Of a stretch of 64,000 bases of DNA, positions 5,976 to 38,187 are shown one piece after another. Numbering within the stretch: the stretch's first letter is position 1; each line of letters opens with the position of its first letter. This stretch comes from an uncultured Candidatus Saccharibacteria bacterium (GTDB lineage: Bacteria > Patescibacteriota > WWE3 > CAZQFB01). Location: assembly GCA_964592525.1 (NCBI GenBank), contig CAZQFB010000001.1:212413-276412 (forward strand), written 5' to 3'. The notes below the pieces were generated by a model. It did not search any database, had not been told where the DNA came from, and worked only from the letters and a program-made list of their open reading frames with translations. The translations under genes and the position numbers were made by a program.

Positions 5976-6338
5976 ATGAACTCATCTTTCATCTTAATCC
6001 TTATTAACATTCTCCTAGCGGTGTCGGGGCAAACTTTTATTAAACAAGGTGTAGCTAAAGTTGGTGATTATTCGACAATGCCGGTAGTGTTGTTTTTCCA
6101 ACAGGCGCTCCTTTCTCCTTTTGTGATTTTAGGTGTGCTCTTATATATTTTATCTTCTTTTGTGTGGTTTCTTGTTCTTTCCAAATTAGATCTTAGTATA
6201 GCTTATCCAGCGTTAAGCTTAGGTTATATCCTGGTTTTGGCGATTGGTGTTTTTTATCTTAACGAACCACTGACATTTTACAAATTACTTGGTGTTATAT
6301 TTATTTGTTTGGGTACTTTTCTCGTTTTCCATAAATAA
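5976..6338 (+). CDS. small 4-TM SMR/EamA-like membrane protein (candidate lipid-linked sugar flippase subunit, ArnE/ArnF-like)
   Basis: A 120 aa protein with four hydrophobic segments. Its size and topology resemble SMR-type ArnE/F or GtrA-like flippases, and it lies immediately downstream of the GT2 and FAD-enzyme genes. Confidence 0.45.
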   Translation: MNSSFILILINILLAVSGQTFIKQGVAKVGDYSTMPVVLFFQQALLSPFVILGVLLYILSSFVWFLVLSKLDLSIAYPALSLGYILVLAIGVFYLNEPLTFYKLLGVIFICLGTFLVFHK

Positions 6339-22462: not shown

Positions 22463-24028
22463 ATGTCCGTTAATTCGCGTATTGCTGTAGATTCTATAAA
22501 AACAGCTATAGCCACTTTTGGTATGCAGGCTGTGGCTTTTGCGGTTTCTATTCTGGTAGCTCAATTTTACGGAGCTACTAAGGTTATGGATGCCTACTTT
22601 TTTGCTTTAGCAGTTCCGGCTCTTTTTACGGCGGCCTTGTTTGGTGCTCTGAAAGCTGTTTTTATTCCGGTTTACACTGATTATGTTAGTAAACATCCCA
22701 AACAGAAGCAAGCGGTTTTGGGGGCAGCTTATAGTAGTGTAACACTGCTGTCGGTGACGGCCGCGCTGCTGCTTTATTATCTCGCTCCCTTGCTCATGCC
22801 CTTAGTGGCTTCTGGACTAGAAGGGGAAGAAGCCAAGTTGTTGGTGGTCACACTCGCTCGGGAATTAATGCCTTTGGTAGTGCTCTCCTCAATCATTGGC
22901 TTGATGAATTCTATTTACCAAGCCGAGCAGCGATTTGTCATGCCCATTCTGACTCCTTTTGCTCGTAGTTTGGTGTTATTTATTTTTGTTGTTTTTTTCC
23001 GAGATCAATTGGGCATACACGCTTTAACCTATGGTTCGGTTTTGGGTGAGCTGTTAAACCTGTTGCTCATGTTTGGGGCGCTGAAAGTTCGCGGTATTTA
23101 CTTTGGCTTTAGATCCATGTTTCACCCAGTTATTAAAAGAATGGCTAGGTTGTCCATAGCTCCATTGGTAGGTAACCTGGTTCTCGAGTTTAATCCTTTG
23201 GTGGATAAGATTATGATCGCTTCTACGGCGGTTGGTTCGGTAACTGCTTTAAACATAGCTTATAAATGGAACGATATCCCTCTCATGCTTCTAAGCTCGG
23301 GTGGATTTATGTCGGTTATTCTTTCTCATTGGTCCAAACTCAAAGCTGAAGAAGATATGGATAAAGTGGTCCAAAGTTTGCATCAGTCTCTAACCATGGT
23401 GGTCTTTATCTTAATGCCTTTTCTAACTGCCTTTTTTGTTTTACGTTCAGAGATTATCACCTTTTTTTACCTTAGAAAGGAATTTAGTGTGGAAGCGGCA
23501 GATAATGTGGCTTTATTATGGGGTGTTTTGCTTTGGGGTGTTCTGCCCGTTCTCACCGGTCGTATTTTGGTGCGGGTGTATCATGTGATGCAAGATACCT
23601 CCACTCCATTTTGGATAGGTATCTCCCGTACCATTCTCAATATAGTCTTAAATTTCATTTTCAAGGCTATGTTTGGGTTGGTGGGGATAGCTATTTCAAG
23701 TATTGTGACCCAATACATCCTCACCACTATTAATTTTTACCTATTAAAGAAAAAACTTTTTCAGCTTGAGTTGAGATTTTTAACTCTTTCCTGGCTTAAG
23801 ATATTTTTATGTGCTCTGCCCATGGCTTTGGTGATGAGGTTTAGCTATCATCCTTTGCTCAATCTTGCTCAAATTATCATTAATCAAGAACTGCTTTATC
23901 CTGTGCTGGCCATAGGTGCCACTTCTTTTCTTGGGTTACTGATCTATTTATTAGTCTCAAGAGTAATTAAACTGGCTGAATTTGAGCTGCTCTTTTCCAA
24001 TATGAGTAAATTGCTGCGCAAATCTTAA
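22463..24028 (+). CDS. MurJ/MviN-family (MOP superfamily) lipid-linked glycan flippase
   Basis: The N-terminus SRIAVDSIKTAIATFGMQAVAFAVSILVAQFYGATKVMDAYFFALAVP matches the MurJ signature region. The protein is 521 aa with about 14 TM segments. Confidence 0.65.
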   Translation: MSVNSRIAVDSIKTAIATFGMQAVAFAVSILVAQFYGATKVMDAYFFALAVPALFTAALFGALKAVFIPVYTDYVSKHPKQKQAVLGAAYSSVTLLSVTAALLLYYLAPLLMPLVASGLEGEEAKLLVVTLARELMPLVVLSSIIGLMNSIYQAEQRFVMPILTPFARSLVLFIFVVFFRDQLGIHALTYGSVLGELLNLLLMFGALKVRGIYFGFRSMFHPVIKRMARLSIAPLVGNLVLEFNPLVDKIMIASTAVGSVTALNIAYKWNDIPLMLLSSGGFMSVILSHWSKLKAEEDMDKVVQSLHQSLTMVVFILMPFLTAFFVLRSEIITFFYLRKEFSVEAADNVALLWGVLLWGVLPVLTGRILVRVYHVMQDTSTPFWIGISRTILNIVLNFIFKAMFGLVGIAISSIVTQYILTTINFYLLKKKLFQLELRFLTLSWLKIFLCALPMALVMRFSYHPLLNLAQIIINQELLYPVLAIGATSFLGLLIYLLVSRVIKLAEFELLFSNMSKLLRKS

Positions 24029-24452: not shown

Positions 24453-24534
24453 GTTGGTACCTCCTCACTTGCACGGTTGTACCGAATAGGTACGGGAATT
24501 ATAGCAGAATATTAAGGTTATTTTGTTCAAACTG

Positions 24535-26130
24535 CTACTTGGGTTTTTTTACCACCCAAGCATAGGTAAAATCATTAAGCTTACTTTCAAAGATAATATT
24601 GTCTTCCTTAAAGTATTTATCGATCATGATGTTTTCTTTTTCCCTTTGCAGTTGGTTAACATAAAAGACGAGATAGGTAACGTCTTCTTCTTCGTATCTA
24701 AAGGTTGGTCTAACCTCGCATAAACAACCAGGGGCTACCGTAGCTTCGTACCAAGAAGATACTCTAATGTTTTCGGGGTCTTCCAGGGAGTTAAGATACT
24801 TGGTGACCTCTTTCATACCTTCTCCCCAGCCAACCCTAATAAACCGAACCGCGCTTTGTTGACCCCCAAGCAGAGGGTTGTAGTAGCCCAGGTATTGATT
24901 CTCCAAACCATTGGTGGACAAAATGAAAATAGTGATCACCGCTAAACCCAAGAAAGGTATTAACCAATTCTTTATTCGTGGCCACTTTTCCTCAAATTTA
25001 GTAAATAGCCAATAAAAAGAAACAGAGGCCACTAAATCAAGGAAAACAAGTGTTTCCAGGCTGTAGCGGTCTTCTTTTTTACTAGGTATGGCCAGGATCA
25101 CGATCCAATAGATGGCAAAAAGTAGGAAAATTAAGATTAGTCTTTTGATGTTTGTGTCCTTGATCTTTTTGGTGAGAAGAAGGATCAAGGTTAAAGGTAA
25201 CCCTATAAAGGTGAGTACGCTTTGTCTAAAAAGAATAGCCAAAAGGTAAAAGAGGCGTGGTTCTCCATTATCGTATAACCGTCCAAAGAAAAACTCATTA
25301 CCTTCAAACGCTCCTTTTAAGCCTTCCTCAAAGATTGATTTTCTGAAGGCCTCAATGGTGCCGGAGAAGTTGGTAACCCAAGAGGGTAAGAGCAGAATAG
25401 AAACGAGTAGGAAGGTCACTGTTAGTAACACACTATCTTTGATTATGGTTTGTGGTATTTTTTTGCTCCTCATCATTTCCCCCACGCTGTCCCAGGAGAG
25501 GATTAGCCAAACCAGGGGTAAAATACTTAGCCCGTATATTTTGGTCATGCCGTTTAGGGCTAATAGGACTCCCGTAGTAATTAACCAAATTCTCGTTTTT
25601 TGCCTTTGATACAGCAGGGCAGATAAAACAGAGCCTATGATAAAAGAAGTCTGGATAGCGTCCATTTGCACTACTCGAGAATGCGCTAGAAAGTAAACAT
25701 TGCTTAGGACCAAGAACGTTGCAATAGAAGCGAATTTGCTGTTGGTTAATTTTTGTAAGCTGTAAAAGATAAAGGCGATGAGTAAAGAGGTGATTAGAAT
25801 AATCGGAAGCTGATAAGCAAAGTGGACTCTGTTGAAAGTATGGGAGAGATAGGGATAATCTTGGTAATCAAAAGTAGGATCAAATTGGCGATAAATCAGC
25901 CTTAAAGTTCTTAAGGAAATAACTGATTGCCATGTAATGGTAGCTCCAGGGTGACCGGCTACCATGGCATCTTCCCATCTACCCTCTTTGACGACATGAT
26001 AAAAATCATTAGTTCTCTCATGCCAATGGTATTCATCTGGGTTAATGGCTTCAGCATTAATCTGCCAAAGTCTAAGCCCCAGCGCCAGTAGAAATATTGC
26101 TACAGTAAATAGAAAGGTTCTACGGTTCAT
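24535..26130 (-). CDS. GT-C membrane glycosyltransferase, PMT/ArnT-like
   Basis: NPDEYHWHERTND...AGHPGATITW gives a DE motif and an HP motif in the first loop. The protein is 531 aa and polytopic. Confidence 0.6.
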   Translation of the reverse strand: MNRRTFLFTVAIFLLALGLRLWQINAEAINPDEYHWHERTNDFYHVVKEGRWEDAMVAGHPGATITWQSVISLRTLRLIYRQFDPTFDYQDYPYLSHTFNRVHFAYQLPIILITSLLIAFIFYSLQKLTNSKFASIATFLVLSNVYFLAHSRVVQMDAIQTSFIIGSVLSALLYQRQKTRIWLITTGVLLALNGMTKIYGLSILPLVWLILSWDSVGEMMRSKKIPQTIIKDSVLLTVTFLLVSILLLPSWVTNFSGTIEAFRKSIFEEGLKGAFEGNEFFFGRLYDNGEPRLFYLLAILFRQSVLTFIGLPLTLILLLTKKIKDTNIKRLILIFLLFAIYWIVILAIPSKKEDRYSLETLVFLDLVASVSFYWLFTKFEEKWPRIKNWLIPFLGLAVITIFILSTNGLENQYLGYYNPLLGGQQSAVRFIRVGWGEGMKEVTKYLNSLEDPENIRVSSWYEATVAPGCLCEVRPTFRYEEEDVTYLVFYVNQLQREKENIMIDKYFKEDNIIFESKLNDFTYAWVVKKPK

Positions 26131-26241: not shown

Positions 26242-27903
26242 GTGGCAAAGTACCTAAAGAGAAGTAATTCTATATTGATCGTAATTCTGATCGTTTCTTT
26301 TTTGTTGCGGGTATGGGGAATTAATTTTGGCTTTCCTTTCTTTTTGCATCCGGATGAAACTAAGATTGTGGAAAAAGCTATTACCATGGCCTTCGGTTTT
26401 AAAGAGGCTATCTTTGCCGGCGACCTTAAATTTTTTGATCCTAATTTTTATTTTTACCCCAGCTTCTTAACCTATTTGCTTATGTTTAATATTTTAGGCC
26501 TTAAGGTTATATTTCTAATTCTTAAATTCTTGACTCTGGGGAAAGTTACTTTTGCTCTGGTTTCCAAACCTCTTTTTTACTTCCTAGCTCGTTTGATTTC
26601 GGTTCTTTTTGGTACAGCTACTATTTACTTAACCTATCTATTGGGGAAAAGAATCTCTGGTAACACGGTGGGACTTATCGCGGCCTTGATTTTGGGTACC
26701 AACTTTTTCCACGCCCTTAACTCCCATTACTATACTGGTGATGTGGGGGCTACCTTTTTCACAGTCCTGTCGTTTCTATTTATTTTTATGTATTTGGATC
26801 GGGTAAAAATTATGAGAGCAGGATGGCGGAATGAATACTGGGTTTATTTAGCAGCTCTATCTATTGGTTTTGGTGCCGCTACAAAGTACTACCCAGTACT
26901 AATGCTTGCTATTTTGGTCATTAGTGTTTTTCTGGTAGAACCAGATTTTGCTGCACGCGTAAGAAAGGTAATTACTTCGGTACTAATATCTTTGGCAACC
27001 TTTATGCTGATAGTGCCTTTTAGCGTGTTTAATTTCTCGGCTTTTATTGATGAGCTGAAGGAGTCTAGTGCGCGGTCGGCTACGGGAGTGTTTGGTTTCA
27101 CTAGCGATAATTTTTTCCATTACCTGACCTCCACCGAGCCAACGTTTATTGAACCAATAGCACAAAATTCACTATTGCATGGTTTGGGCTTGGTTTTCAT
27201 GTTGCTTTTCCTTGCTTCTTTAGGGCTATTGCCGGCTAAAAAGAATAAGAAGGTTCTGCTACTGATAATTTATGTGTTGGGACACTATCTTTTCTTTGCG
27301 CACAACCTCACCAAAATTTTAAGGTGGCTCTTGCCGCTTGCTCCTCTTGGGTCTGTTTTGGTTGCTATTCTCATTGTCGAGCTGGGTAATAAGCTGGTTA
27401 GAATAAAGCTGTGGTTAGTGGGTGGTGTTTTACTCGCCATTATCATTCCTAACCTCTACAGAACTATTCTTGTTGATGATGCTTTTACCAAAGAAGATAC
27501 GAGAGTTCAGCTTTACCATTGGGTGGAGAATCATATTCCCGAAAACAGTCGAATCGTGTTTGAGTATTTCAACATCGCCCAGTTTACCAGAAGAGATCTT
27601 TATTATTTTGAATTTGATCATCCCCGCTATAACATTAATGGAGAGATAGCAGCTAGCCGACCACCTGATTACCTGTGGCTTAAAAATGTTTACCAGCCAG
27701 AGTATATTGTTATCAATGGGAGTTTGAGAGATCGCTATAAACAAAAGAGTATGCAAAAATTATTTCCGGAAACCTGCTCAGCCTGGCTTGAAATCTATGA
27801 TAATATTCACAAAGATTATCAGGTAGCCGTTAGGTTTAGGCCATCGTTTCCCGACAGAATCATGTCGGGGCCAGAGATGATTGTTTATGTGCCTAGAAAG
27901 TAA
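26242..27903 (+). CDS. GT-C membrane glycosyltransferase, PMT/ArnT-like (paralog set A)
   Basis: GFPFFLHPDETKIV. It shares the N-terminal RxWGI...GFPF(L)YHPDEP motif with the genes at 33355 and 34946. Confidence 0.6.
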   Translation: MAKYLKRSNSILIVILIVSFLLRVWGINFGFPFFLHPDETKIVEKAITMAFGFKEAIFAGDLKFFDPNFYFYPSFLTYLLMFNILGLKVIFLILKFLTLGKVTFALVSKPLFYFLARLISVLFGTATIYLTYLLGKRISGNTVGLIAALILGTNFFHALNSHYYTGDVGATFFTVLSFLFIFMYLDRVKIMRAGWRNEYWVYLAALSIGFGAATKYYPVLMLAILVISVFLVEPDFAARVRKVITSVLISLATFMLIVPFSVFNFSAFIDELKESSARSATGVFGFTSDNFFHYLTSTEPTFIEPIAQNSLLHGLGLVFMLLFLASLGLLPAKKNKKVLLLIIYVLGHYLFFAHNLTKILRWLLPLAPLGSVLVAILIVELGNKLVRIKLWLVGGVLLAIIIPNLYRTILVDDAFTKEDTRVQLYHWVENHIPENSRIVFEYFNIAQFTRRDLYYFEFDHPRYNINGEIAASRPPDYLWLKNVYQPEYIVINGSLRDRYKQKSMQKLFPETCSAWLEIYDNIHKDYQVAVRFRPSFPDRIMSGPEMIVYVPRK

Positions 27904-27926
27904 AAAGTGGAAAGCGAAAAATAAAT

Positions 27927-28913
27927 ATGATTGAGGATAGCCAACCAAGGGATAGTAGTAAGATTGATCTTTCTATTGTCATACCGCTTTACAACGAGGA
28001 GGAAAGTATTCCTTATCTCTATGAGGAAATTAAGGCGGTGATAGATAGTCAAAATTATAATGTTGAAGTGATAATTGTGGATGACGGGTCTTCGGATAAT
28101 TCTTTTGAAAAGCTAAGGAAAATTCATGACAAAGACAACAGGTTCAAAGTGATTTCTTTTAGAAGGAACTTTGGTCAAACTGCCGCCTTGCAAGCGGGTT
28201 TTGACAAAGCTAAAGGTGAGGTGATTGTTACCCTTGATGCTGATTTGGAGAATGATCCTAAAAACATACCAGATTTATTGGCTAAGTTAGATGAAGGTTA
28301 TGATATTGTTTCTGGCTTAAGAGCCGAACGATGGTCAGGTGGGTTGATGAGTTTAATCAAGAGGAAACTGCCTTCGGCTGCAGCAAACTATTTAATTTCT
28401 CGGACCTCACAAGTTCGTCTTCATGATACGGGTTGTACGCTGAAAGCTTATCGACGTGAGGTATTAAGTCAGATCAGGTTATATGGTGATTCTCACCGAT
28501 TTATCCCAGCAATGGCTAGTCAATATGGGGCTAGGGTTAGTGAGGTGGAAGTCAACTTCCGCCCCAGACGTTTTGGTACTTCCAAGTATGGGTTTTCTCG
28601 CACCATCAAAGTATTCTTAGACGTTATTCTGTTAAGGTTTATGTTAGAGTTTTCCACCCGACCGATGCAGTTTTTTGGGTTTTGGGGTTTACTCGCTGGT
28701 GGTTTGGGGTTTGTTTTTGGTTTGTATTTAACCCTTCTTAAGATCTTAGGTCATCAAAATATTGGTAGTCGACCACTTCTGCTCTTATCTGTACTCCTTC
28801 TTTTTCTGGGCGTTCAGTTGGTGATGATGGGACTTCTGGGTGAACTGCTCTCCCGCACCTACTTTGAATCACAAGGTAAAAAAACATACAGTATCAAAGA
28901 AGCCTTGCTTTAA
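27927..28913 (+). CDS. GT2 polyprenol-phosphate glycosyltransferase (ArnC/GtrB-like) with C-terminal double TM
   Basis: LSIVIPLYNEEESI...VIIVDDGSSDNS...RNFGQTAALQAGF...VTLDADLENDP, plus two C-terminal TM helices. This is a very typical ArnC/GtrB architecture. Confidence 0.8.
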   Translation: MIEDSQPRDSSKIDLSIVIPLYNEEESIPYLYEEIKAVIDSQNYNVEVIIVDDGSSDNSFEKLRKIHDKDNRFKVISFRRNFGQTAALQAGFDKAKGEVIVTLDADLENDPKNIPDLLAKLDEGYDIVSGLRAERWSGGLMSLIKRKLPSAAANYLISRTSQVRLHDTGCTLKAYRREVLSQIRLYGDSHRFIPAMASQYGARVSEVEVNFRPRRFGTSKYGFSRTIKVFLDVILLRFMLEFSTRPMQFFGFWGLLAGGLGFVFGLYLTLLKILGHQNIGSRPLLLLSVLLLFLGVQLVMMGLLGELLSRTYFESQGKKTYSIKEALL

Positions 28914-28918
28914 TTTGT

Positions 28919-30493
28919 ATGAAATTGATTTCCTTTGCTAAAAAAATAAGTGGCCAAGATTTTCGTTTGTTAATGGCTGTGTTTTTAATTGCTTTTCTAC
29001 CTCTTATTTATCAAATGGGTAATACGCATATTCAACCGACTGCTGATTTGTGGGTGCAAAGAAGTGTCAGTTTCATGACCGAGTTTAGACGGTTCAATTT
29101 TGCCGGTACTTTCCAGCAATACCACCCCGGGGTGATGGTGATGTGGCCGGTGGCGGTGGGTTCCTGGTTTTTTTACCACATTGTGCATGCTTCAAGCCCC
29201 GTAGTGCCTGATATCTTTAGCCCTCAATATTTCTCGGAATATGTTGTGTATGCCAAGATACCGCTGATGTTGCTGCAAGCGATCTTCATGGTCTTAATCT
29301 TTTTAATTCTTAGAAAAATTTCGGGAGTTAAAATAGCTTTGCTATCTACACTGCTTTTGGCACTAGAGCCTTTTTATCTGGCTAATGCTCGTACTATCCA
29401 TTTGGATACCATGCTGACTTTGACCATGTTTGCGGCTATATTAAGTATGTACCGGAGTTTGGGTACTAAGCTTAGTGCTATTAAAGCGTGGGATGTGCTC
29501 ACGGGGGCTTTATTTGGATTCAGTTGGCTCTCCAAGATTGTCACTGCCTATCTTATTCCCTTCAGTGCTTTGGCTTTATTGATCACTCCAGGTTCTATTA
29601 GGGATAAGTTCAAAAAGTTTGCTTTATACCTCTTAATTGGGTTGGGGATCTTTGTTATTTTTTATCCGGCGATGTGGGTAGCTCCTTATGAAACGTTGGT
29701 GGGCAAGATTATTCACGGTGGGGTTTTGGAGGTGGGTTTGGAAGATGTCAGTCGGGGTCTTTTGATTGGGAGTAACTCTGGTTTGTTCTATCATTTGTTT
29801 GGTTACCCTCTGACTATTATCTACAGGCTTTCTCCCCTTATTTCTCTTGGTTTAGCTGCCTTTATGGCGCAGTTATTATTTTTTAGAAAAAGTGATCCGG
29901 TCAATAAAAGATTTACTCTTTATCTTTTCCTTTTTGCCTTTTTTTATCTTGCCATGATGTCTTTTTCCACCAAGAAGATCTATCGGTATATGTTACCAGT
30001 CTTTCCGGTGTTGGCTGTTTATTCAGCTTATGGTTGGTTTTTTATCTCAACAGTCTTGAAGGAGAATTTGGCTTTCAATAAAGAAAGAGTTTTTACTTAC
30101 GTGGTTGCCTTTATTATGTTTGCTTATGCTGCTTGTTTTTTAAGGATAGCGCCCAATTTTTTTGCTTACTTTAATCCTCTTTTAGGCGGTATTACTGGCG
30201 CTAAGGAAATAGTTGATCTAAACCAGGATGCTACTGGGTATTATCTAGTGGCGGATTATTTAAACCAACTTGCTCCCGGGAAAGTGGTGGCTTGTTATGA
30301 TTGGAAAATATTAGGTTTGCTATATCAAGGTGAAACGCTCAGTATCCGCAGGGAGGAAAAGCCTATTACCGCTGATTTTATCTTGTTACCGCTCCAGCGA
30401 GGTTATGAGTGGTTAACGAATGAGTATAACCTGATCAAAACCTTTAAAGTTGCTGGTGTTGATTACTGGTATTTATATCAGCGAGCTAATTAA
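28919..30493 (+). CDS. polytopic membrane protein, GT-C-like (putative glycosyltransferase)
   Basis: A 524 aa protein. A YHPGV motif follows the first TM segment, and there are about 11 more TM segments. Confidence 0.45.
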   Translation: MKLISFAKKISGQDFRLLMAVFLIAFLPLIYQMGNTHIQPTADLWVQRSVSFMTEFRRFNFAGTFQQYHPGVMVMWPVAVGSWFFYHIVHASSPVVPDIFSPQYFSEYVVYAKIPLMLLQAIFMVLIFLILRKISGVKIALLSTLLLALEPFYLANARTIHLDTMLTLTMFAAILSMYRSLGTKLSAIKAWDVLTGALFGFSWLSKIVTAYLIPFSALALLITPGSIRDKFKKFALYLLIGLGIFVIFYPAMWVAPYETLVGKIIHGGVLEVGLEDVSRGLLIGSNSGLFYHLFGYPLTIIYRLSPLISLGLAAFMAQLLFFRKSDPVNKRFTLYLFLFAFFYLAMMSFSTKKIYRYMLPVFPVLAVYSAYGWFFISTVLKENLAFNKERVFTYVVAFIMFAYAACFLRIAPNFFAYFNPLLGGITGAKEIVDLNQDATGYYLVADYLNQLAPGKVVACYDWKILGLLYQGETLSIRREEKPITADFILLPLQRGYEWLTNEYNLIKTFKVAGVDYWYLYQRAN

Positions 30494-30540
30494 GACCTTC
30501 GCTGTTTCTTGTTTGATGCCTTAAGAGAGAGCTATTTTGC

Positions 30541-32175
30541 TTAGAGTTGGTAAAGATAAATGGTGTTGCCAATGATGGTGCTAGGTTTTTCTTTTCTTAG
30601 CCACGAGAAACAAGCTGCCTGTTCTTTGCTTAAACCCACCAAATGGTTGATGCTAATTCCAATAAATCCTGTCGTGGGGGTACAGGTTAACGGTTCACAA
30701 GTGATCTCTCGATACTCGCAGCGATCATAGCCAAAATAACTTAATTTGATGGCTTGTTGGTGATTTGTTTTCATGTAGTTGGCTAATTGTTTAAGGTCTT
30801 GCCCCCAATCTAGATTGGAATCAATTAAGATACGGTGTCCTTTGCTTGGTCCTCCGGCCAACTCATTAAAATAAGTCAAATAGTCCGGGTAAATACTCAA
30901 ATTAGCAAGGAGAAACCACAAAGGTAGACCAACTAGTAACGCTTTGGCAAGGTAATTTTGGCGTTTGAGCAAAATAAATTGACCTAAAAAGGTAAATAGA
31001 AATGGGTATATAGGAAGGATGTATCTTAAGCCAATATTAATGTGGGTGGTAAATGATAGGAGCACCGTAGCTAATATGGGAAGGAGAAGATAAACCTCTT
31101 TGTTGAAGAAGCTCTTCTTGCCCCTTTTCCTTGCACCCAGACCTACAATGATGAGCATGATGATTATGGCCAGAGGAGTTTTTACTAAAAAAGCAATTAA
31201 AAAATAGTACCACCAACCCTGCGTAGAGTGTTGACCTAGTAAATAACTGGGATGCCCATGTTGGTTATGGCTAAGTTGTATCAACAGTCCTTTAAAGAAG
31301 GTAGCTATTTCGGTAAAGTGATAAAGGGAAGCCAGAGCTAGCAAGGCAACGATCATTAAGCTTAAGCTGTATTTTTTTATCATTTTTTTGGCGTTTCTGA
31401 TTTCCGGTAGAGTGGGTCTTTCTTTTAAGAGGTAGTATTTTCTAAATTGGTGATTGAAGAGGAGAAAGTACGACACTAAGAAGAACAACAACCCGGAGTG
31501 TTTTGAGCCCACACACAGCCCCAGGCTTAGTCCGGCGAGCAGTAAATGTTTGTTTTTGCCCCCTTTTTCCAGGAACAGATATAAAAGAAAAATAGCCAGA
31601 TACGCAAAGATGGTTACCCCAAAATCAACCGAGACTAACTGGGTAAAAGAAAGTATTGTTGGTGAGAAAGTGTAAAGGAACAAAGAAAACAGTCCTGCTT
31701 TGGTGCCATACAGTGTAGAGCTAAAATGATAAATGATTAAACCTAGTAATAGACCAAGAAGGATCACCGGAACTCTACCAGCTAAAACGAGACGATCGGT
31801 ATTATTATTTTGGAAATACAACAGCTGGTGAGCAAAATTAATATCATCTGCCTCTAGCCAAGAAAGGTGATCAAGGGGTAGGTGGGGTTTGAGTAATAGT
31901 AAAGGTGCTCCGGCAATAAGTTTGATTAGCGGTGCGGTTTCGGGATTAAGTCGGTAATCTCCAGTAGTCAGATACGAGTAACCAGCGGGAATGTAGATTA
32001 TTTCATCCATGGTGACAGATTTTTGGCTAAGACTCGTTAGCGCTAAGATAAAAAAACATGTCAGCAGGATAAGAATTACGGAAAGGGTTAGCTTTTGTCC
32101 AGGGAACATAATCTTTGAGAGTGTGACTGATAATATCATATCAGGAAAGAGAGATCGTGCTAAAATGTGAAGCAA
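30541..32175 (-). CDS. GT-C membrane glycosyltransferase, PMT/ArnT-like
   Basis: VTMDEIIYIP...ETAPLIKLI gives a DE motif and a PPLxK-like motif. The protein is 544 aa. Confidence 0.6.
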   Translation of the reverse strand: MLHILARSLFPDMILSVTLSKIMFPGQKLTLSVILILLTCFFILALTSLSQKSVTMDEIIYIPAGYSYLTTGDYRLNPETAPLIKLIAGAPLLLLKPHLPLDHLSWLEADDINFAHQLLYFQNNNTDRLVLAGRVPVILLGLLLGLIIYHFSSTLYGTKAGLFSLFLYTFSPTILSFTQLVSVDFGVTIFAYLAIFLLYLFLEKGGKNKHLLLAGLSLGLCVGSKHSGLLFFLVSYFLLFNHQFRKYYLLKERPTLPEIRNAKKMIKKYSLSLMIVALLALASLYHFTEIATFFKGLLIQLSHNQHGHPSYLLGQHSTQGWWYYFLIAFLVKTPLAIIIMLIIVGLGARKRGKKSFFNKEVYLLLPILATVLLSFTTHINIGLRYILPIYPFLFTFLGQFILLKRQNYLAKALLVGLPLWFLLANLSIYPDYLTYFNELAGGPSKGHRILIDSNLDWGQDLKQLANYMKTNHQQAIKLSYFGYDRCEYREITCEPLTCTPTTGFIGISINHLVGLSKEQAACFSWLRKEKPSTIIGNTIYLYQL

Positions 32176-33368
32176 TGAAAATAGCCATTTTTTCCACGAC
32201 CTTTTTTCCTCAAACCGGTGGTGCGGAAAGGTTTATGCACGGTTTGGCGACAAGGTTGGTTAAGCAAGGTCATCAAGTGGTGGTTATTGCCCCGATTGCG
32301 AAAGAATTAAACACCCACTCTTTTAGTTATAAGGTTTTTCGTTTGAGATTGCTGGCTCTTTTTATCCCCAGCAGTGTTTTTTATAACCTGACGTTACTGC
32401 TTAATTTATTTGTCTGTTACTGGCGGCATCGTTTTGAGGTTTTACAGGTAGTGGGTTTATATCCAGCCGGTGAGGCAGCGCGCTGGTTGGTTCGCTTCTT
32501 GCCAAAGGTGACTTTGGTGGCTAGGGCAACTGGTTCTGATATCTTGATTTTTCCAACCATTAATTACGGCTTGCGACTTGATCCCAAGATGGATGCTCGG
32601 ATTAAAAATATTATTCATGCTGCAGATGCGCTGGTTGCCAACAGTAATTCTGTTAAAGAAGAGTACCTCAAAGTTACTCCCGAGTCAGATAAAATTGTGG
32701 TTATACCCAATGCTCTGGATCTGGATAAATTTGTTACCACTCAAGAAAGTAACAGAGTGGTACGGAGGAAATGGTGTGATAATGATAACGCTCGCATCGT
32801 TCTTTCTGTGGGTCGTAATGAAGAAAGAAAAAACTTTGCGCTTTTAATCCAAAGTATGGAAGAGATAATGGTTAAGGAAGAGTATGAAGATGTTTATTGT
32901 GTCATCGTGGGAGCGGAAACGAAAAAACTAAAATCTTTGGTGGAGGCTTCGGTGATTGAAAATAGGTTTATTTTTGCCGGTCCGTTGCCGGTAGAAGGCA
33001 CTATGGAATATGAGAATTATCCTCCCCCCGAACTGATCGAGTTGTATTTGGCAAGCTCTCTCTTTGCCTTACCTTCTACCATTGAAGGTCAACCCAATGT
33101 TCTTTTGGAGGCTATGGCTGCAGGTTTGCCCATGGTGGCTGGAAATGTGCCCGGTAGTAAAGATGTTATTGAACATGGCAAGACAGGTTTTCTAGTTGAT
33201 CTGGAGCATCCCGCCGAGTTTACCGCGGCTTTGGAAAGATTATTATTACAGCCCGAGCTTCATCAGCGAATGAGTTTAGAGGCAAAGAAAAAAGCACAGG
33301 ATTATAATTGGGATATAGTCGTTGATCAGTATTTAAGACTTTATCTAAGTTGTAATGAGCATAAGTAG
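32157..33368 (+). CDS. GT4 family glycosyltransferase
   Basis: VLLEAMAAGLPMVAGNVPGSKDVIEHGKTGFLV. Confidence 0.75.
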   Translation: MLKCEAMKIAIFSTTFFPQTGGAERFMHGLATRLVKQGHQVVVIAPIAKELNTHSFSYKVFRLRLLALFIPSSVFYNLTLLLNLFVCYWRHRFEVLQVVGLYPAGEAARWLVRFLPKVTLVARATGSDILIFPTINYGLRLDPKMDARIKNIIHAADALVANSNSVKEEYLKVTPESDKIVVIPNALDLDKFVTTQESNRVVRRKWCDNDNARIVLSVGRNEERKNFALLIQSMEEIMVKEEYEDVYCVIVGAETKKLKSLVEASVIENRFIFAGPLPVEGTMEYENYPPPELIELYLASSLFALPSTIEGQPNVLLEAMAAGLPMVAGNVPGSKDVIEHGKTGFLVDLEHPAEFTAALERLLLQPELHQRMSLEAKKKAQDYNWDIVVDQYLRLYLSCNEHK

Positions 33369-35013
33369 ACCACAAAAATTAAGCAGAGCTCTGGTGCTGA
33401 TATTATTGTTGTCCTTTATTTTAAGAATATGGGGCATTTGGCATGGTTTCCCGTTTCTTTATCACCCAGACGAACCAACAGTAGTGAATAGTGCCCTCAC
33501 TTTATGGGGTAAAGGTTTTAATCCCGGTCACTTTGATTGGCCGCATTTTCATTATTATCTAACCGCCTTGATTTATCTGCCCTTGGTTCTTTTATTGTGG
33601 TTTAAGAATGGAGGTATTGAGGGTTTACTTGCTAACCTGGTTCCTTTTTTTCTCCTAGCACGTTTACTTTCGGCGGGTATGGGTGTTGCTAGTGTATATT
33701 TAACCTATAAGATTGCCGAGAAGTTGTTTAATCACAAGACAGCTTATCTGGCGGCTCTTTTCCTGGCGATAAATACTACCCATGTTTTTAATTGCCAACA
33801 CGCTTTGATTGATGTCCCCATGACTTTTTGGCTTTTAGTGTCTTTTTACTTTTCTGTTCTTATCATTGCCCGCCCTACCCTAAGAACTTATGCCTTAGCG
33901 GGGTTTTTCCTTGGGTTGGCCACTTCCACAAAATACAACGCCGCTTTAGGACTCATGTTCATTTTAGGGGCTCATTGGTCTAGGCATCTTAATATTTTAG
34001 TACCTAGGAATTATCAGGAAGTGAGAAAGTTTGTTTTGAGTTTGGGTTCAATACTTCAGCCATTAAAACCTTTAGTTATTGGAGTTTTAGCCTCGCTATT
34101 GGGTTTCTTTCTAGGTACACCTTTTGCTCTTCTCGATTATAAAACCTTCCTGATGACAGATAACCCAGATGGAGCCCTATGGCAGTTTGTTCATGTTGGT
34201 AGTGGTGGGTTTAACACAGGTGTTCTGGAAAGGTTGCTTTCGGTGCTCTTTGGTGTTTTAGCTCAGGGAACGGGCATATTAATTATCCTGTTAGCTATAT
34301 ATGGATTATTTAAAATCCGAGCCTTCAAGAGGGAAGCAGCTTACCTTATTGTTCCTTTTGTTGTTTTTTATCTGATTTTTGTGGGGGCTTTTAGTTATTC
34401 TCCTGTTCATTTTTTTATCCCCCTAATTCCGTTCCTTTGTATTTTAGCTGGTATCGGTTTTGTATTAATCATCGATTTGATAAATTCTTTTTTTAACCTT
34501 AACAAGAGTAAACAGAAGGTAACCTTTTCAGCTATTTTAATATTGGTTTGTCTTTCTCCCCTGGCTAGATCTGCTTATTCTGACTTTGTGCTTACGCAAA
34601 AAGATACCAGAACCTTGGCTTATGAATGGGTGAGTGAAAATATTACCCCTGGCGCTGGTATTGTGATGGGTAACGATTACGAACCTTTGCTCGACGCGGC
34701 AAGGTATCAGCTTTATGACTTACACGAATTTTTGTTAGATGAAGATTTGTCCGAACCCATTTATCCCAAATTTGAGGACAAAGGAATTAAGTATGGGGTG
34801 TTAGGTAGTTATAATTTGCTGGATAATCTAACCCGGGCCAATTGGGATCCCCAAGAACCAGAGTTCACCGATTACCTACTAGATAATGCTAAGATAGTAG
34901 CAAGGTTTGAGCCCCAAGGTCATCCTGGTCCAGTAGTGATGATTTTTGAGATTGGTTATGACTATGAAGTTTTGCAAAAACACAAAATTTCTCCAGAAAC
35001 TGACAAGAGATAA
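33355..35013 (+). CDS. GT-C membrane glycosyltransferase, PMT/ArnT-like (paralog set A)
   Basis: GFPFLYHPDEPTVV, a paralog of the genes at 26242 and 34946. Confidence 0.6.
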   Translation: MSISRPQKLSRALVLILLLSFILRIWGIWHGFPFLYHPDEPTVVNSALTLWGKGFNPGHFDWPHFHYYLTALIYLPLVLLLWFKNGGIEGLLANLVPFFLLARLLSAGMGVASVYLTYKIAEKLFNHKTAYLAALFLAINTTHVFNCQHALIDVPMTFWLLVSFYFSVLIIARPTLRTYALAGFFLGLATSTKYNAALGLMFILGAHWSRHLNILVPRNYQEVRKFVLSLGSILQPLKPLVIGVLASLLGFFLGTPFALLDYKTFLMTDNPDGALWQFVHVGSGGFNTGVLERLLSVLFGVLAQGTGILIILLAIYGLFKIRAFKREAAYLIVPFVVFYLIFVGAFSYSPVHFFIPLIPFLCILAGIGFVLIIDLINSFFNLNKSKQKVTFSAILILVCLSPLARSAYSDFVLTQKDTRTLAYEWVSENITPGAGIVMGNDYEPLLDAARYQLYDLHEFLLDEDLSEPIYPKFEDKGIKYGVLGSYNLLDNLTRANWDPQEPEFTDYLLDNAKIVARFEPQGHPGPVVMIFEIGYDYEVLQKHKISPETDKR

Positions 35014-36598
35014 ACCATTTTTACTATTAGTATCAGTTTCATTTATTTTGAATCTATTTGGCGTTACTTGGGGGTTTCCCCATTTATACCATCCCGATGA
35101 ACCAGTCATTATCAGAGATGCTCTTGGTGTTTCCCAATATGAGGTCAAGTTAGAACATTTTGATTGGCCGCATCTGCAGACTTATCTTGATTCTTTCTCC
35201 TTTACTATTTTTATTAAGGGGAGGGGTTTTATTAGAGCCGTAGGACTAGAAGATTTTACCAGAACACAATTTCCATTGCTGTGGAATGACAATATTGTCT
35301 TTTATTTTTTGGGTAGACTTTGGACGGTGTTATACGGTGCTCTTACGGTTGGTCTTGTCTATCTAATAGGAAAGCATTTCTTTACCAAAAGAGCGGCTTT
35401 GTTCTCTGCCTTGCTTCTGCTACTTAACTCACTGTTTTTAACCAATACCCGACTTGCTACTATTGATATTCCCATGTTGTTCTGGCTTACCTTTTCTCTT
35501 TATTTCTGTTTTCGAGTAGTAACACTAGGATCATTAGCGAGTTATATGTTAGCTGGACTTTTAGCAGGCTTGGCTGCTTCTACCAAGTACAACGGTGGGT
35601 TTGCGGTGATCACCTTGTTGGTAGCCTTTATGTTATCCGTTTTGGTAAAGAAGAAAAATATCCTGGCGGAGTTTAGAAAACTTGTAATTTCGGGAGCAAC
35701 TAGTCTGTTTGGTTTCTTTCTCGGTACACCGAATGCTTTATTTGAATATCATACTTTTCTAAACACAGAAAACCCTTCTGGGGCAATGTGGCAGTTTACT
35801 AGACCCGGTAACTCGGGGGGGATAACTTACCTGGAAAAAATAAGAGGCAGGCTATTTGTATTGATGGACGCTATGGGGTTTTTGCCTCTAGTATCCGCTG
35901 TGGTGGGTGTGCTTAACGCTTTTATTAAGCGTCACTGGTCATTAATCCTCCTGTCGGTTTTCCCCACCGCATATTATTTATATGTGGGGGGGTTTGAGTA
36001 CTTTCAACCCCATTTTTTACTGCCAACCATGCCCTATCTTTCTTTGCTGGCGGGAGTAACCTTTTCTTCATTATTAGGTAAAGTTGAGCAGCATACTTCT
36101 TTGCGTACGGACAAAAGGAGGGTTATTAATGTCATTCTTTGTTTGTTGTTTTTTGTTGGCCCTCTTTATTTAGCTATGCTTAATAAACAAATTGTGCTGA
36201 AGAAAGATAGCAGAACCGTGGCTCTGGAGTGGATTAATGAGAACATCCCCGCTGGCTCAACAATTGCACAAGGTAGTGATTATGAGCCACCATTAGAAAG
36301 CCGAGAGGGACTAAAAGGTATTGATAACAGACCAGACAGATATTATCTAAAGTCGTTTTCTGAACTTGAACGTACGCATCATTTAGAGGCTTCTTTAGCA
36401 GAAAAGTTGAAGGCAGAGGGGGTTGAGTATCTTGTTTTCGGTACTTTTGGTATGGCTAAAGATTACGAAGAAGCGGTTTGGGATGAGGAGGTTCCTACTA
36501 GGTTGGGTTGGCTTAAGAAGTATGCGGAAATGATTTATCGCGTGGATGAAGAAGGTCGTTTAGGACCAACTATATTTGTGTTTAAAATAAAACCGTGA
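34946..36598 (+). CDS. GT-C membrane glycosyltransferase, PMT/ArnT-like (paralog set A)
   Basis: GFPHLYHPDEPVII. The probable start is at the internal Met (MKFCKN, about 34964), which leaves about 50 nt of overlap with the upstream paralog. Confidence 0.6.
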   Translation: MRLVMTMKFCKNTKFLQKLTRDKPFLLLVSVSFILNLFGVTWGFPHLYHPDEPVIIRDALGVSQYEVKLEHFDWPHLQTYLDSFSFTIFIKGRGFIRAVGLEDFTRTQFPLLWNDNIVFYFLGRLWTVLYGALTVGLVYLIGKHFFTKRAALFSALLLLLNSLFLTNTRLATIDIPMLFWLTFSLYFCFRVVTLGSLASYMLAGLLAGLAASTKYNGGFAVITLLVAFMLSVLVKKKNILAEFRKLVISGATSLFGFFLGTPNALFEYHTFLNTENPSGAMWQFTRPGNSGGITYLEKIRGRLFVLMDAMGFLPLVSAVVGVLNAFIKRHWSLILLSVFPTAYYLYVGGFEYFQPHFLLPTMPYLSLLAGVTFSSLLGKVEQHTSLRTDKRRVINVILCLLFFVGPLYLAMLNKQIVLKKDSRTVALEWINENIPAGSTIAQGSDYEPPLESREGLKGIDNRPDRYYLKSFSELERTHHLEASLAEKLKAEGVEYLVFGTFGMAKDYEEAVWDEEVPTRLGWLKKYAEMIYRVDEEGRLGPTIFVFKIKP

Positions 36599-38187
36599 CA
36601 GTTGTTAGTACTCTAATTAGAGTGGTTAAAACAGACAGAAGTTATCAGCTATTAATAGTGGTTCTGTTTTTGGCATCCTTTTTAAGGTTTTATCGAGTGG
36701 GTTCAGATATTTTTAATGATGACGCCCAGTTTTGGTTTGCGCGTTCAATTACTCATATTGAGGCTCTCAAGGAATTGGATTTTGAGGACACTTTTATCAA
36801 TACAAAACCGGGGGTGACTATTCAATGGTTAACCGGCTTGAGCTTGGATATTTTTCTCAATCTTTATAACAAGATTTTTCATTTCAAACCCCTTTTATAT
36901 ACAGCGGAAACTTTTAGGTGGGTTGATCTAGCGGCCAAATCTCCTCTTATTCTGCTTACAATATTATTTTTGCCCTTTTTATATGCGATTATCGAAAAAA
37001 ATCTGAATAGAGATATCGCTATTTTTACCACTATATTTTTAGCCTTTGAGCCTTTTTATATAGGTATAAGTAGGTGGTTGCACGTGGAGGGTATCTTGGC
37101 TGTTTTTATGCCTGTTTCAGTTTTTCTTTTTATTCAGTACTTATTTGATAAAAATAAAAAATGGTTGCTATTATCGGGCATAGCTTCTGGTTTGGCTCTG
37201 CTTACTAAATCCCCTGCTGTGTTTTTGTGGCTATTCATCCCTTTATCCTTTCTTGTCTATTCAACCATTTATAAAAGTACAAATATCTTTAAGCAAAAAA
37301 TCAAGTTTTTTGTCCGGGATTACCTTGCCTGGTTGTTAATTACTTTGGTTACCTTCATATTACTTTTTCCGGCTATGTGGGTTCAACCCGTTGAGGTTGT
37401 AGGAAGGATAATTGGGGATACGATCTATACCGGCTCGGTAGGTCGCAACAATATTGAGGGTCCCTTGTTTTATAGCTATGCCTTTTTTATGAGAACCTCT
37501 CCTTTGTTAATCTTATCTTTTTTGGGGGGGTTATTTGTACTTATCAAGAGGTATAAGAAGCTCCCTCAAAAGACAAGACTTGTGCTAGTGCTATCTGGTC
37601 TTTTTGTCTTTTTCTATTTCTTAATGATGAGTTTGGCGGCCCAAAAAATGGATCGTTATTTACTGACGATTTATCCTTTTATTGCCATAATCGCCTCTTT
37701 TGGGGTGGTTTCTTTATTAGCTAGTTTTGAGAGTAAACATGCTCTTGTGCTAGGGATGGTTATTATTTGCCAGTTTGCTTTCGCTTTATATTACACACCA
37801 TATTTCACTACTTACTACAACCCTCTGCTGGGGGGTAGAGAAACAGCCTCAAAATTATGGCGTGTAGAATCTACCGGTCAGCTTTACCCGGAAGTGGCTA
37901 AGTGGGTTAATTCCCATGATAATCCTTACGAGCTGAACACGGTGGTAAATTATACGGGGCATAGTTTAAGGCCTTACATTTTGGGTAAAGTTTTTAGTAA
38001 GAATGAAAACCTGCCCGAGGGTTTGGAGGCAGACTTTTTTATTGTGCCTTGGGACCAAACCTTGTCTTTGAGATGGCAACAATGTTTCCCAATGGATGAG
38101 ATTAGGTATCATGGTGATTTGTACTGGACTATTTATGGGTGTAATGAAAAGTGGAGGGGAGAGGTGAAGAGCGAGCAAACCTATTAG
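36595..38187 (+). CDS. polytopic membrane protein, GT-C-like (ArnT-like DD loop)
   Basis: A 530 aa protein. The first loop carries FNDDAQFW (an acidic pair), and there are about 12 TM segments. Confidence 0.45.
   Translation: MTVVSTLIRVVKTDRSYQLLIVVLFLASFLRFYRVGSDIFNDDAQFWFARSITHIEALKELDFEDTFINTKPGVTIQWLTGLSLDIFLNLYNKIFHFKPLLYTAETFRWVDLAAKSPLILLTILFLPFLYAIIEKNLNRDIAIFTTIFLAFEPFYIGISRWLHVEGILAVFMPVSVFLFIQYLFDKNKKWLLLSGIASGLALLTKSPAVFLWLFIPLSFLVYSTIYKSTNIFKQKIKFFVRDYLAWLLITLVTFILLFPAMWVQPVEVVGRIIGDTIYTGSVGRNNIEGPLFYSYAFFMRTSPLLILSFLGGLFVLIKRYKKLPQKTRLVLVLSGLFVFFYFLMMSLAAQKMDRYLLTIYPFIAIIASFGVVSLLASFESKHALVLGMVIICQFAFALYYTPYFTTYYNPLLGGRETASKLWRVESTGQLYPEVAKWVNSHDNPYELNTVVNYTGHSLRPYILGKVFSKNENLPEGLEADFFIVPWDQTLSLRWQQCFPMDEIRYHGDLYWTIYGCNEKWRGEVKSEQTY

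Follow-up and report, generated by a model that had tools for sequence, protein, structure and literature searches.

Glycosylation systems made up of a GT-A enzyme, a flippase and a GT-C enzyme have been described (PMC8035078; PMC11127046), with GtlA/GtcA/GtlB, CsdC/CflA/CsdD, GacI/GacL and GtrA/B/V as examples. The locus studied here, in a window of 64,000 nucleotides from an uncultured, ultra-small Patescibacteria bacterium, resembles these three-component systems in that a membrane-anchored GT2 synthase adjoins GT-C genes with PMT_2 domains, in that SMR-type and other flippase candidates occur in the same island, and in its predicted logic, according to which the donor would be made inside, flipped and transferred outside (PMC8035078; PMC11127046). 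It departs from them in that the known systems have one GT-C per GT2, whereas the window has about 14 GT-C-type genes and three or four GT2 synthase candidates, and in that no GtrA-family flippase was found in the window. Moreover, three of its GT-C proteins (A, B and C in Table 1) have an additional alpha/beta domain at the C-terminus, and also a GFPxxxHPDE motif that is specific to their subfamily and after which we call it the HPDE subfamily.

Protein O-mannosyltransferases (PMT; CAZy GT39), such as Pmt1/Pmt2/Pmt4 and the actinobacterial Pmt, are the second system to be considered. They provide the best solved sequence match of A, B and C (6p25_A, E 3e-21), they share with them an Asp-Glu pair after TM1, and the Pfam PMT model scores above threshold in two of the three paralogues (B and C). 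However, PMTs are 750-820 aa long as opposed to about 550 aa, they do not have the C-terminal domain, and the identity in structural alignments is only 13-19%. In eukaryote-type GT39 enzymes, TM7 and TM8 are separated by a MIR domain (a lumenal beta-trefoil); membership in that group was rejected for A, B and C, as the Pfam search found no MIR in these proteins of about 550 aa and the structure model contains no such domain.

ArnT (CAZy GT83) is the undecaprenyl-phosphate-L-Ara4N:lipid A transferase, and it has a similar layout: about 550 aa, with a GT-C membrane module followed by a small periplasmic domain at the C-terminus. The window also encodes an ArnC-like GT2 and a small protein that resembles ArnE/F. 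Nevertheless, A, B and C gave no match to the NCBIfam ArnT model PRK13279 at E 0.01 or better and were not assigned to GT83; the only match was a 929-aa fusion protein encoded at 44766 (71.7 bits against a cut-off of 567). The acceptor of ArnT should also be absent, because lipid A is reportedly missing from the group containing this organism (Kantor et al. 2013, PMC3812714). The oligosaccharyltransferases STT3/AglB/PglB (GT66) were discarded as well, since A, B and C do not combine the WWDYG motif at the start of the C-terminal domain with a match to the STT3 models, the motif itself being absent. Finally, mycobacterial Emb/Aft and PimE and eukaryotic ALG3/9/12/6/8/10 are comparable as batteries of paralogous GT-C enzymes that use polyprenyl-phosphate monosaccharide donors for one external glycan, and a GT87 (PimE-family) gene is present in the same island; yet A, B and C do not belong to any of these batteries at the sequence level, nor do they have carbohydrate-binding modules of the kind found in Emb and AftD. 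By analogy with these batteries, the GT-C enzymes of the island may act sequentially.

We consider it likely that A, B and C are paralogues of one GT-C subfamily that arose long ago and have since differentiated in function, and that they are located in a chromosomal surface glycosylation island of a deep-branching member of the Patescibacteria (CPR).

Table 1. Features of the locus; positions are counted from the first nucleotide of the window
Feature	Position	Strand	Description
Small SMR/EamA protein	5976..6338	+	4 TM, ArnF/ArnE-like; candidate polyprenyl-phosphate sugar flippase
Flippase-like domain protein (LPG_synthase_TM)	8438..9421	+	TIGR00374 66.4 bits (cut-off 43.2); Pfam 92 bits
MurJ/MOP-family flippase	22463..24028	+	Pfam MurJ 169.6 bits; NCBIfam murJ 190 bits (under cut-off 235)
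Second-subfamily GT-C (with 28919 and 36595)	24535..26130	-	Pfam PMT 42.6 bits
GT-C paralogue A	26242..27903	+	553 aa; basal member of HPDE subfamily
Motif LRVWGINFGFPFFLHPDET of A	26305..26361	+	End of TM1 and start of first extracytoplasmic loop; Asp38-Glu39
C-terminal extracytoplasmic alpha/beta domain of A	27490..27900	+	Begins K-E-D-T-R
GT2 polyprenyl-phosphate sugar synthase, GtrB/ArnC/PgfS-like	27927..28913	+	Pfam Glycos_transf_2 122 bits
Second-subfamily GT-C	28919..30493	+	Directly 3' of GT2; Pfam PMT_2 58.1 bits
Solitary GT-C	30541..32175	-	Pfam PMT_2 50.3 bits
GT4 cytoplasmic glycosyltransferase	32157..33368	+	Pfam Glycos_transf_1 118 bits
GT-C paralogue B	33355..35013	+	552 aa
Motif LRIWGIWHGFPFLYHPDEP of B	33421..33477	+	Asp39-Glu40
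C-terminal extracytoplasmic domain of B	34597..35010	+	Begins Q-K-D-T-R
B/C gene overlap	34946..35013	+	50-68 nt, set by the start codon chosen
GT-C paralogue C	34946..36598	+	550 aa from TTG 34946; more likely 544 aa from ATG 34964
Motif LNLFGVTWGFPHLYHPDEP of C	35048..35104	+	Contains Asp-Glu pair
C-terminal extracytoplasmic domain of C	36200..36595	+	Begins K-K-D-S-R
Second-subfamily GT-C	36595..38187	+	Pfam PMT_2 43.6 bits; 4-nt overlap with stop of C

Homology and age of the three paralogues

The initial annotation had described a recently duplicated tandem family of three genes for proteins of about 550 aa. The three open reading frames and the motif segments that it quoted are all present (Table 1), and the family is real, although the same 12-kb stretch contains more than these three genes, namely four further GT-C genes of PMT_2 type. 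A, B and C are homologous over almost their full length (BLASTP E values of 1e-84, 2e-31 and 9e-22), and all of them exceed the gathering threshold of Pfam PMT_2 (PF13231; 34.6, 46.8 and 59.8 bits for A, B and C, cut-off 26.1). Pfam PMT (PF02366, cut-off 22.7) matches B with 42.6 and C with 54.1 bits, and the Pfam search returned no match of this model in A. The structure model supports a place in the GT-C fold superfamily (GT-C_A class), with a multi-span membrane module whose overall fold is that of solved GT-C enzymes. A profile of the family gave 546, 534 and 346 bits for the three paralogues, the last value being that of A, and not more than 75 bits for the other GT-C genes of the window, which sets A, B and C apart as a subfamily of their own. 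A protein identical to A (P0106) is encoded on an NCBI contig.

The overlap of about 50 nt between the last two genes was also confirmed. It amounts to 68 nt if C starts at TTG 34946, 56 nt from ATG 34958 and 50 nt from ATG 34964, the start favoured by alignment to the paralogues. In this overlap a low-confidence tail of B (residues 543-552, pLDDT below 50 in the structure model) coincides with the N-terminal cytoplasmic tail of C, and it is not kept in relatives, in which there are 44 nt (L087) or 11 nt (L001) of overlap or a 13-nt gap (L004).

The N-terminal segments had been called nearly identical, which was an overstatement: the quoted 19-mers agree between copies at 13/19, 12/19 and 9/19 positions, and over the first 60 residues identity is 29-42%. 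Over the whole proteins pairwise identity is 25-33%, that is, the low identity outside the motif that had been named beforehand as evidence against a recent duplication. At the DNA level, megablast detected no similarity among the copies except the physical B/C overlap, and a direct-repeat search recovered only short stretches of 72-81% at conserved motifs and nothing that would point to gene conversion. Among the copies, identity at third codon positions is 33-36%, so that synonymous sites are saturated.

Each copy is most similar to its positional counterpart in one of three related contigs (L001, L004 or L087), with 41-55% identity. For A the orthologues are L087_3281 (49%), L001_4812 (41%) and, in a WWE3 locus, L085_10001 (39%), and for C they are L004_2147 (51%), L087_11318 (47%) and L001_11694 (34%); besides its A-type gene (39%), the WWE3 locus has a single B/C-type gene (33%/32%). 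In a neighbor-joining tree, built with a simple distance correction and not with a maximum-likelihood model, the clades of A, of B and of C (the window with L004) each had 100% bootstrap support and the family including A had 99%. The B and C clades were sisters with 62% and the basal placement of A had 35%, and because of these two values we are less sure of the order in which the duplications occurred than of their great age. In all four related contigs (L001, L003, L004 and L087) B and C are neighbours and keep their order. As their clades are sisters, a local tandem duplication is the best explanation for this pair. Thus, the proposal of a local duplication of one GT-C type holds for the pair, and the three genes are paralogues, but none of this is recent.

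A scenario in which one GT-C gene duplicated locally and recently and the copies then diversified rapidly under positive selection, leading to surface variation between strains, would fit the adjacency, common strand and overlap of B and C and the sister position of their clades; and as 77 of 84 other Patescibacteria loci have only one member of the family when 10 kb to each side are considered, the extra copies are specific to this lineage. Nevertheless, we find this explanation hardly tenable, given the divergence of the copies, the saturation of their synonymous sites and the existence, in three independent relatives, of positional orthologues that are closer to each copy than the copies are to one another. 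Strain-level variation is also difficult to reconcile with the gene order, which relatives have conserved even though their GT-C proteins share only about 35-55% identity with those of the window. Regarding positive selection, dN/dS was judged uninformative because of the third-position identity of the paralogues and the orthologue protein identity of at most 55%, and a comparison of conservation by domain, both inside and across orthologue groups, was used in its place. Inside these groups the C-terminal domain is 33-65% identical (46-65% once the most distant comparison within group A and within group C is set aside; 33-53% for A against its own orthologues), and relative to the membrane core it is clearly more conserved in the 33355 group and about equally in the 34946 group. 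Overall, conservation of this domain does not fall below that of the core, which also counts against the view of rapid diversification.

Invariant residues and the C-terminal domain

Seven residues (P33, D39, E40, R103, G187, Y194 and P256) are invariant in 67 homologues, A, B and C included. As all three copies retain every one of them, pseudo-enzyme status for one copy was ruled out. In the structure model, D39-E40 sits between TM1 (helix 11-25) and the next helix, beginning at residue 39. It is thus the conserved acidic pair in the first extracytoplasmic loop after TM1 by which GT-C enzymes are recognized, with a putative catalytic role, and it may be equivalent to the catalytic Asp/Glu of PMT, ArnT or PglB, as judged from position and invariance only. 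A comparison of the N-terminal 102 residues with PDB sequences, aimed at aligning HPDE with the 'DE' of PMT, gave chance-level matches only (E above 0.6).

The C-terminal soluble domain had been reported as shared and conserved. It is shared, with the K-D-T/S-R and G-P landmarks common to all copies, but between copies it is only 14-34% identical, and 16-17% when A is compared to B or C. The acceptor diversification suggested by the initial annotation is compatible with the domain-wise conservation pattern. Since the invariant residues are kept and the C-terminal domains are strongly different, A, B and C most likely work on one and the same surface glycan or glycoprotein, each of them adding a sugar to another position or another acceptor. 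By analogy, such a set would resemble a fixed assembly line, like those of mycobacterial arabinan/mannan synthesis or of the lumenal ALG steps, rather than a variable repertoire.

The surrounding glycosylation island

A membrane-anchored GT2 synthase is encoded together with the GT-C genes. It lies between 26242 and 28919, a position kept in L001 and L087, has two C-terminal TM segments (residues 250-302) and orthologues with 74% (L087) and 57% (L085) identity, and scores 220 bits with NCBIfam ArnC and 172 with PgfS, both under the equivalog cut-offs; it is the presumed maker of the lipid-linked donor. The GT4 gene is kept at the same position in L001 and L087 (51%), and a 14-nt overlap with the beginning of B makes it a probable member of the same operon. 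The three second-subfamily GT-C genes also have orthologues in L087 and L001: 53% and 50% for the one at 24535, which is transcribed divergently from A and is 21-27% identical to the other two, 48% and 42% for the one at 28919, and 43% and 35% for the one at 36595. The solitary GT-C gene at 30541 has no counterpart in the gene order of the syntenic contigs L001 and L087.

None of the three flippase candidates adjoins A, B or C. The ArnE/F-like gene, with NCBIfam ArnF at 57.1 bits (E 2e-15, under the cut-off of 99) and Pfam EamA at 28.3 bits, is 20 kb distant from them, and the MurJ homologue may simply be a lipid II flippase. The flippase-like gene at 8438 is coupled by a 4-nt overlap to a GT2 gene (7575-8441), and this pairing of GT2 and flippase-like protein (7575-9421) recurs in the WWE3 locus. 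The island contains, in addition, a phosphoglycosyltransferase (Bac_transf), about ten GT4 genes and the fusion protein of 929 aa already mentioned (44766-47555), in which a Wzy_C domain is fused to a PMT_2 domain. Scans of the window for tRNAs and Rfam families found nothing, and a promoter and terminator scan yielded fewer sites than shuffled controls.

Taken by themselves, the paralogues are ordinary: they belong to a known class of GT-C enzymes, have diverged, carry a signature motif of their family and did not arise by recent duplication. What gives them weight is their setting in an uncultured Patescibacteria bacterium, whose genome is presumably reduced like those of its group: surface glycosylation takes up most of a 45-kb stretch. 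Since the gene order is conserved in spite of the low GT-C identity, it is probable that a surface glycan or glycoprotein, both complex and stable, has a central place in the biology of this lineage.

Proposed mechanism and possible acceptors

The mechanism that we propose is derived from the families involved, and it extends to the donor, lipid carrier, flippase, acceptor and division of labour of A, B and C. At the cytoplasmic face, a membrane-anchored GT2 would take single sugars from nucleotide sugars and attach them to undecaprenyl phosphate; the main candidate is the enzyme at 27927-28913, and those at 7575-8441 and 21756-22460 are also possible. A flippase, for which the three proteins listed in Table 1 are candidates, would then bring the lipid-linked sugar to the outer face, where each GT-C would pass it to an acceptor outside the membrane. 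The Asp-Glu pair of the HPDE motif, with which the first extracytoplasmic loop begins, would serve as catalytic acid/base and acceptor-activating site, and the outer loops together with the small alpha/beta domain at the C-terminus would choose the acceptor.

The acceptors could instead be secreted or surface proteins, such as S-layer proteins or pilins, with A, B and C as bacterial counterparts of PMT or oligosaccharyltransferase and a different set of proteins for each paralogue. In favour of this, the best solved sequence relatives are Pmt1, Pmt4 and Pmt2 (E 3e-21 to 5e-5), some homologues have precomputed STT3 Pfam matches, and the Wzy_C domain of the fusion protein is of the O-antigen ligase / O-oligosaccharyltransferase type. 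However, A, B and C have neither a MIR domain nor a WWDYG motif, and the island has the full set for a lipid-linked polysaccharide (the phosphoglycosyltransferase, many GT4 genes and a MOP flippase). Furthermore, Gram-positive GT-Cs of PMT_2 type that work with a GtrB/CsbB-type GT2 modify teichoic acids and wall polysaccharides (PMC8035078), and we therefore regard an exclusive role in protein glycosylation as unlikely.

The constant adjacency of B and C and their translational coupling could also be explained if 33355 and 34946 formed an obligate heterodimer like eukaryotic Pmt1-Pmt2. The order of the pair in the four related contigs, genes that overlap or nearly abut, the retention of all invariant residues in both proteins and the fact that PMTs, their closest solved sequence relatives, are dimers according to structure entry titles would all agree with this. 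We consider it quite improbable, as consecutive steps of one pathway predict adjacency and coupling equally well and the next gene (36595), from the other subfamily, is coupled in the same way. A still bolder scenario, to which we give a slim chance, would combine such a Pmt1/Pmt2-like heterodimer, glycosylating surface proteins for host attachment, with an HPDE subfamily that forms a new CAZy-level family with an AglB-like C-terminal domain and an island that is an extracytoplasmic glycan assembly line as complex as those of mycobacterial walls and the eukaryotic ER, the only ones so far known. Our preferred reading is still that of differentiated paralogues acting on one surface glycan or glycoprotein.

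The HPDE subfamily comprises over 10,000 clusters at 50% identity (E 1e-30 or better) and to our knowledge has no characterized member, so that one biochemical characterization would annotate many genes. Our literature search found no paper on GT-C expansions in Patescibacteria, and for WWE3 there is a general remark on the abundance of glycosyltransferases (PMC3812714).

The three paralogues and their family

The initial annotation had named three ORFs of about 550 aa, and they are present on the plus strand (see the table; genes are called by their first nucleotide). The N-terminal segments that it quoted were located at nt 26305-26361, 33421-33477 and 35048-35104. The proteins align over nearly their full length, with 33% identity between 33355 and 34946 (BLASTP, E 1e-84), 26% between 26242 and 33355 (E 2e-31) and 25% between 26242 and 34946 (E 9e-22), which at the sequence level is homology far above chance. 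However, the N-terminal segments are not nearly identical, as had been claimed, because the quoted 19-mers share only 13/19, 12/19 and 9/19 positions and residues 1-60 are 29-42% identical. The overlap of 33355 and 34946 is real and measures 68, 56 or 50 nt for a start of 34946 at TTG 34946, ATG 34958 or ATG 34964, the last being favoured by alignment with the paralogues. The overlapped end of the 33355 protein is a low-confidence tail in the predicted structure, and the overlap is not kept in three syntenic contigs, where it measures 44 nt or 11 nt or gives way to a 13-nt gap.

Coordinates of the paralogues and other features of the window
Feature	Position (nt)	Strand	Length
Paralogue A (26242)	26242-27903	+	553 aa
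Paralogue B (33355)	33355-35013	+	552 aa
Paralogue C (34946)	34946-36598	+	550 aa
B12-binding radical-SAM protein	25-1740	-	
DUF2079 protein	2091-3737	-	
FAD amine-oxidase-like oxidoreductase	4523-5971	+	
ArnF/ArnE-like ORF	5976-6338	+	120 aa
GT2 and flippase-like pair	7575-9421	+	
Membrane protein, ~ten predicted TM segments	20304-21731	+	475 aa
Gap, MurJ-like gene to 24535	24029-24534		506 nt
ORF in this gap	24123-24452	-	109 aa
Palindrome	26179-26212		
27927 GT2	27927-28913		
GT-C 30541	30541-32175	-	
GT87	41238-42470		
Wzy_C and PMT_2 fusion	44766-47555	+	929 aa
Phosphoglycosyltransferase (followed by a DUF4012 protein)	50894-51523		

We assign the three proteins by sequence to the GT-C superfamily and the Pfam PMT_2/PMT families, as all of them pass the PMT_2 gathering score and two of the three that of PMT; the nearest solved structure by sequence is yeast Pmt1 (E 3e-21). 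Seven positions (P33, D39, E40, R103, G187, Y194 and P256, numbered as in 33355) are invariant in a profile built from 67 homologues, and the three paralogues retain all of them. Their scores against this profile are 546, 534 and 346 bits, whereas no other GT-C protein of the window exceeds 75 bits, so the grouping made in the initial annotation corresponds to a genuine subfamily, here called HPDE after its N-terminal GFPxxxHPDE motif. In the 33355 model the motif is predicted to run from the last part of TM1 (helix 11-25) into the beginning of the first outer loop, and the helix that follows begins with D39-E40. The catalytic acidic residues of GT-C enzymes sit at this position, and D39-E40 are their putative counterparts. 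No member of HPDE has been characterised, and NCBIfam offers no model specific to it. It comprises 10,170 clusters at 50% identity (E 1e-30 or better). HPDE proteins occur mainly in MAGs of WWE3 and other Patescibacteria, and in a few Chloroflexota. Membership tests came out against ArnT, oligosaccharyltransferase and eukaryote-type PMT identities, and in predicted function the paralogues most resemble the GT-C enzyme of Gtr/Csb-type systems. The three paralogues are further members of an already known enzyme kind. A literature search turned up no publication on expanded GT-C sets in Patescibacteria; what came closest was a general comment on the glycosyltransferase richness of WWE3 genomes (PMC3812714).

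Age and divergence of the copies

Megablast found no DNA similarity among the three genes apart from the physical overlap, and a repeat search found merely short stretches (72-81%) at conserved motifs. Third codon positions are 33-36% identical, so synonymous sites are saturated. The closest database homologues lie on three independent metagenome contigs (L001, L004 and L087) with the gene order of the window, where the best match of each paralogue is the gene in the same position: 49% (L087) and 41% (L001) for 26242; 55% (L004), 49% (L087) and 44% (L001) for 33355; and 51% (L004) and 47% (L087) for 34946. Neighbouring genes match their same-position orthologues at 74% (GT2), 51% (GT4) and 35-53% (other GT-Cs).

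In a neighbour-joining tree (104 sequences, 100 bootstraps) the 26242, 33355 and 34946+L004 clades each have 100% bootstrap. The 33355 clade groups with that of 34946 as its sister (62%), and the family including 26242 has 99%, with weak support (35%) for the basal branching of 26242. The WWE3 (Katanobacteria) contig L085 has a comparable island with a single gene of the 26242 type (39%) and a single, undivided gene of the 33355/34946 type (33%/32%), so the split between these two types predates the separation from WWE3. The 33355/34946 duplication is younger, but it took place before the window lineage separated from L001, L004 and L087. The recent local duplication of one GT-C enzyme that had been proposed is therefore contradicted in its date by the low identity, which the initial annotation itself had named as evidence against it, and the paralogy stands.

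Since dN/dS is inestimable at such divergence, we compared identity domain by domain. Within the 33355 orthologue group it is 38-50% in the membrane core and 58-65% in the C-terminal extracytoplasmic domain; the respective values are 36-46% and 33-53% for the 26242 group, 34-50% and 33-51% for the 34946 group, and 25-26% and 16-17% when 26242 is compared with 33355 and 34946. Inside orthologue groups the C-terminal domain is on the whole not less conserved than the core. We read this pattern as that of old copies under purifying selection for differing specificities, and it is neither that of diversifying selection still at work nor that of surface variation at strain level.

The glycosylation island and a proposed mechanism

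The window is chromosomal: its part from 53 to 63 kb contains mraZ, rsmH, ftsI, recO and genes for a Mur ligase and an aminoacyl-tRNA synthetase. RsmH is identical to a protein encoded on a 344-kb NCBI contig, and its best non-identical matches reach only 53-55%, from Microgenomates-type and other Patescibacteria, which together with the HPDE distribution indicates a deep-branching Patescibacteria bacterium. Nearly every gene of 2091-53394 is a glycosylation gene. There are 11 PMT_2-type GT-C genes (15595, 17122, 18779, 24535 (-), 26242, 28919, 30541 (-), 33355, 34946, 36595 and 44766), one gene each for a GT87, a DUF2079 protein, an unassigned 10-TM protein and a phosphoglycosyltransferase, about ten GT4 and six GT2 genes, and three candidate flippase genes, which encode a MurJ/MOP flippase, a GT2-coupled flippase-like-domain protein and a small SMR protein resembling ArnE/F. 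The 27927 GT2, directly 3' of 26242, is ArnC/GtrB/PgfS-like with two C-terminal TM helices. In other Patescibacteria loci of at least 20 kb the HPDE member is accompanied by three GT-C-like genes in the median, so that GT-C clustering is general and the set is expanded in the window lineage. This GT-C gene density is unusual for a small-genome bacterium, and the island as a whole is more noteworthy than the three paralogues.

To the fold, family, invariant residues, orthology and context demonstrated for the paralogues we add a mechanism that follows the published logic of three- and multi-component transmembrane glycosylation systems (PMC8035078, PMC11127046). GT2 enzymes would make undecaprenyl-phosphate monosaccharides at the inner membrane face, a flippase would export them, and each GT-C, using Asp-Glu as its catalytic pair, would pass the sugar on to an extracytoplasmic acceptor chosen by the outer loops and the C-terminal domain. 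That about 14 GT-C-type genes stand against three or four donor synthases is most economically explained if the island is a fixed line for extracytoplasmic assembly or decoration; each of the three paralogues would then act at a sugar position of its own. The PMT and AglB resemblances weakly support proteins instead of glycans as acceptors, although the paralogues have no MIR or WWDYG features and the gene set is of polysaccharide type. A Pmt1/Pmt2-like heterodimer of 33355 and 34946 was also considered, for which the one piece of evidence is their conserved adjacency.

Other genes and non-coding stretches

The ArnF/ArnE-like ORF (4 TM) lies in an apparent intergenic gap and is easily missed at 150-aa ORF cut-offs; it scores 57 bits with NCBIfam (E 2e-15, below cut-off) and 28.3 bits with Pfam EamA. 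ArnF/ArnE are SMR-type undecaprenyl-phosphate-sugar flippase subunits. The GT2 and flippase-like pair consists of an AglJ/dolichyl-phosphate-hexose-transferase-like GT2, which has two TM helices, and a flippase-like-domain protein (LPG_synthase_TM; TIGR00374 above cut-off), whose genes share a 4-nt overlap. The pair recurs in L085 (14552-16440), there with the orthologue of the 27927 GT2, and may represent a conserved module of synthase and flippase.

The start of the island is flanked by the radical-SAM protein and by the oxidoreductase, which has a weak UDP-galactopyranose-mutase match; both may be sugar-modifying enzymes. The 475-aa protein has no Pfam match and a 39% orthologue in L085 (5676-7127), and is probably a further unrecognised membrane glycosyltransferase or polymerase. 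The fusion of Wzy_C (O-antigen ligase/polymerase-type) with a PMT_2 GT-C has a 931-aa counterpart in L001 (20824-end). GT-C 30541 has no same-position counterpart in L001 or L087 and no close paralogue in the window (at most 25%), and was apparently either gained in this lineage or lost from the relatives. The L087 orthologue (6056-8344) of 28919-30493 has 762 aa instead of 524 aa, and its ~240 extra residues are possibly an added extracytoplasmic domain.

The 506-nt gap between the MurJ-like gene and GT-C 24535 (-) is without a convincing ORF, its 109-aa ORF having no Pfam match, and contains no tRNA or Rfam match. Finally, the 111-nt divergent intergenic region between 24535 (-) and 26242 (+) contains a perfect palindrome with 12-bp arms, AAGGAGACTCCTT-GCAA-GGAGTCTCCTT (arms of 17 nt at 94%), unique in the window, with 0 expected by chance. 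Neither L087 nor L001 conserves this sequence, and a role as operator or as bidirectional terminator-like hairpin is possible.
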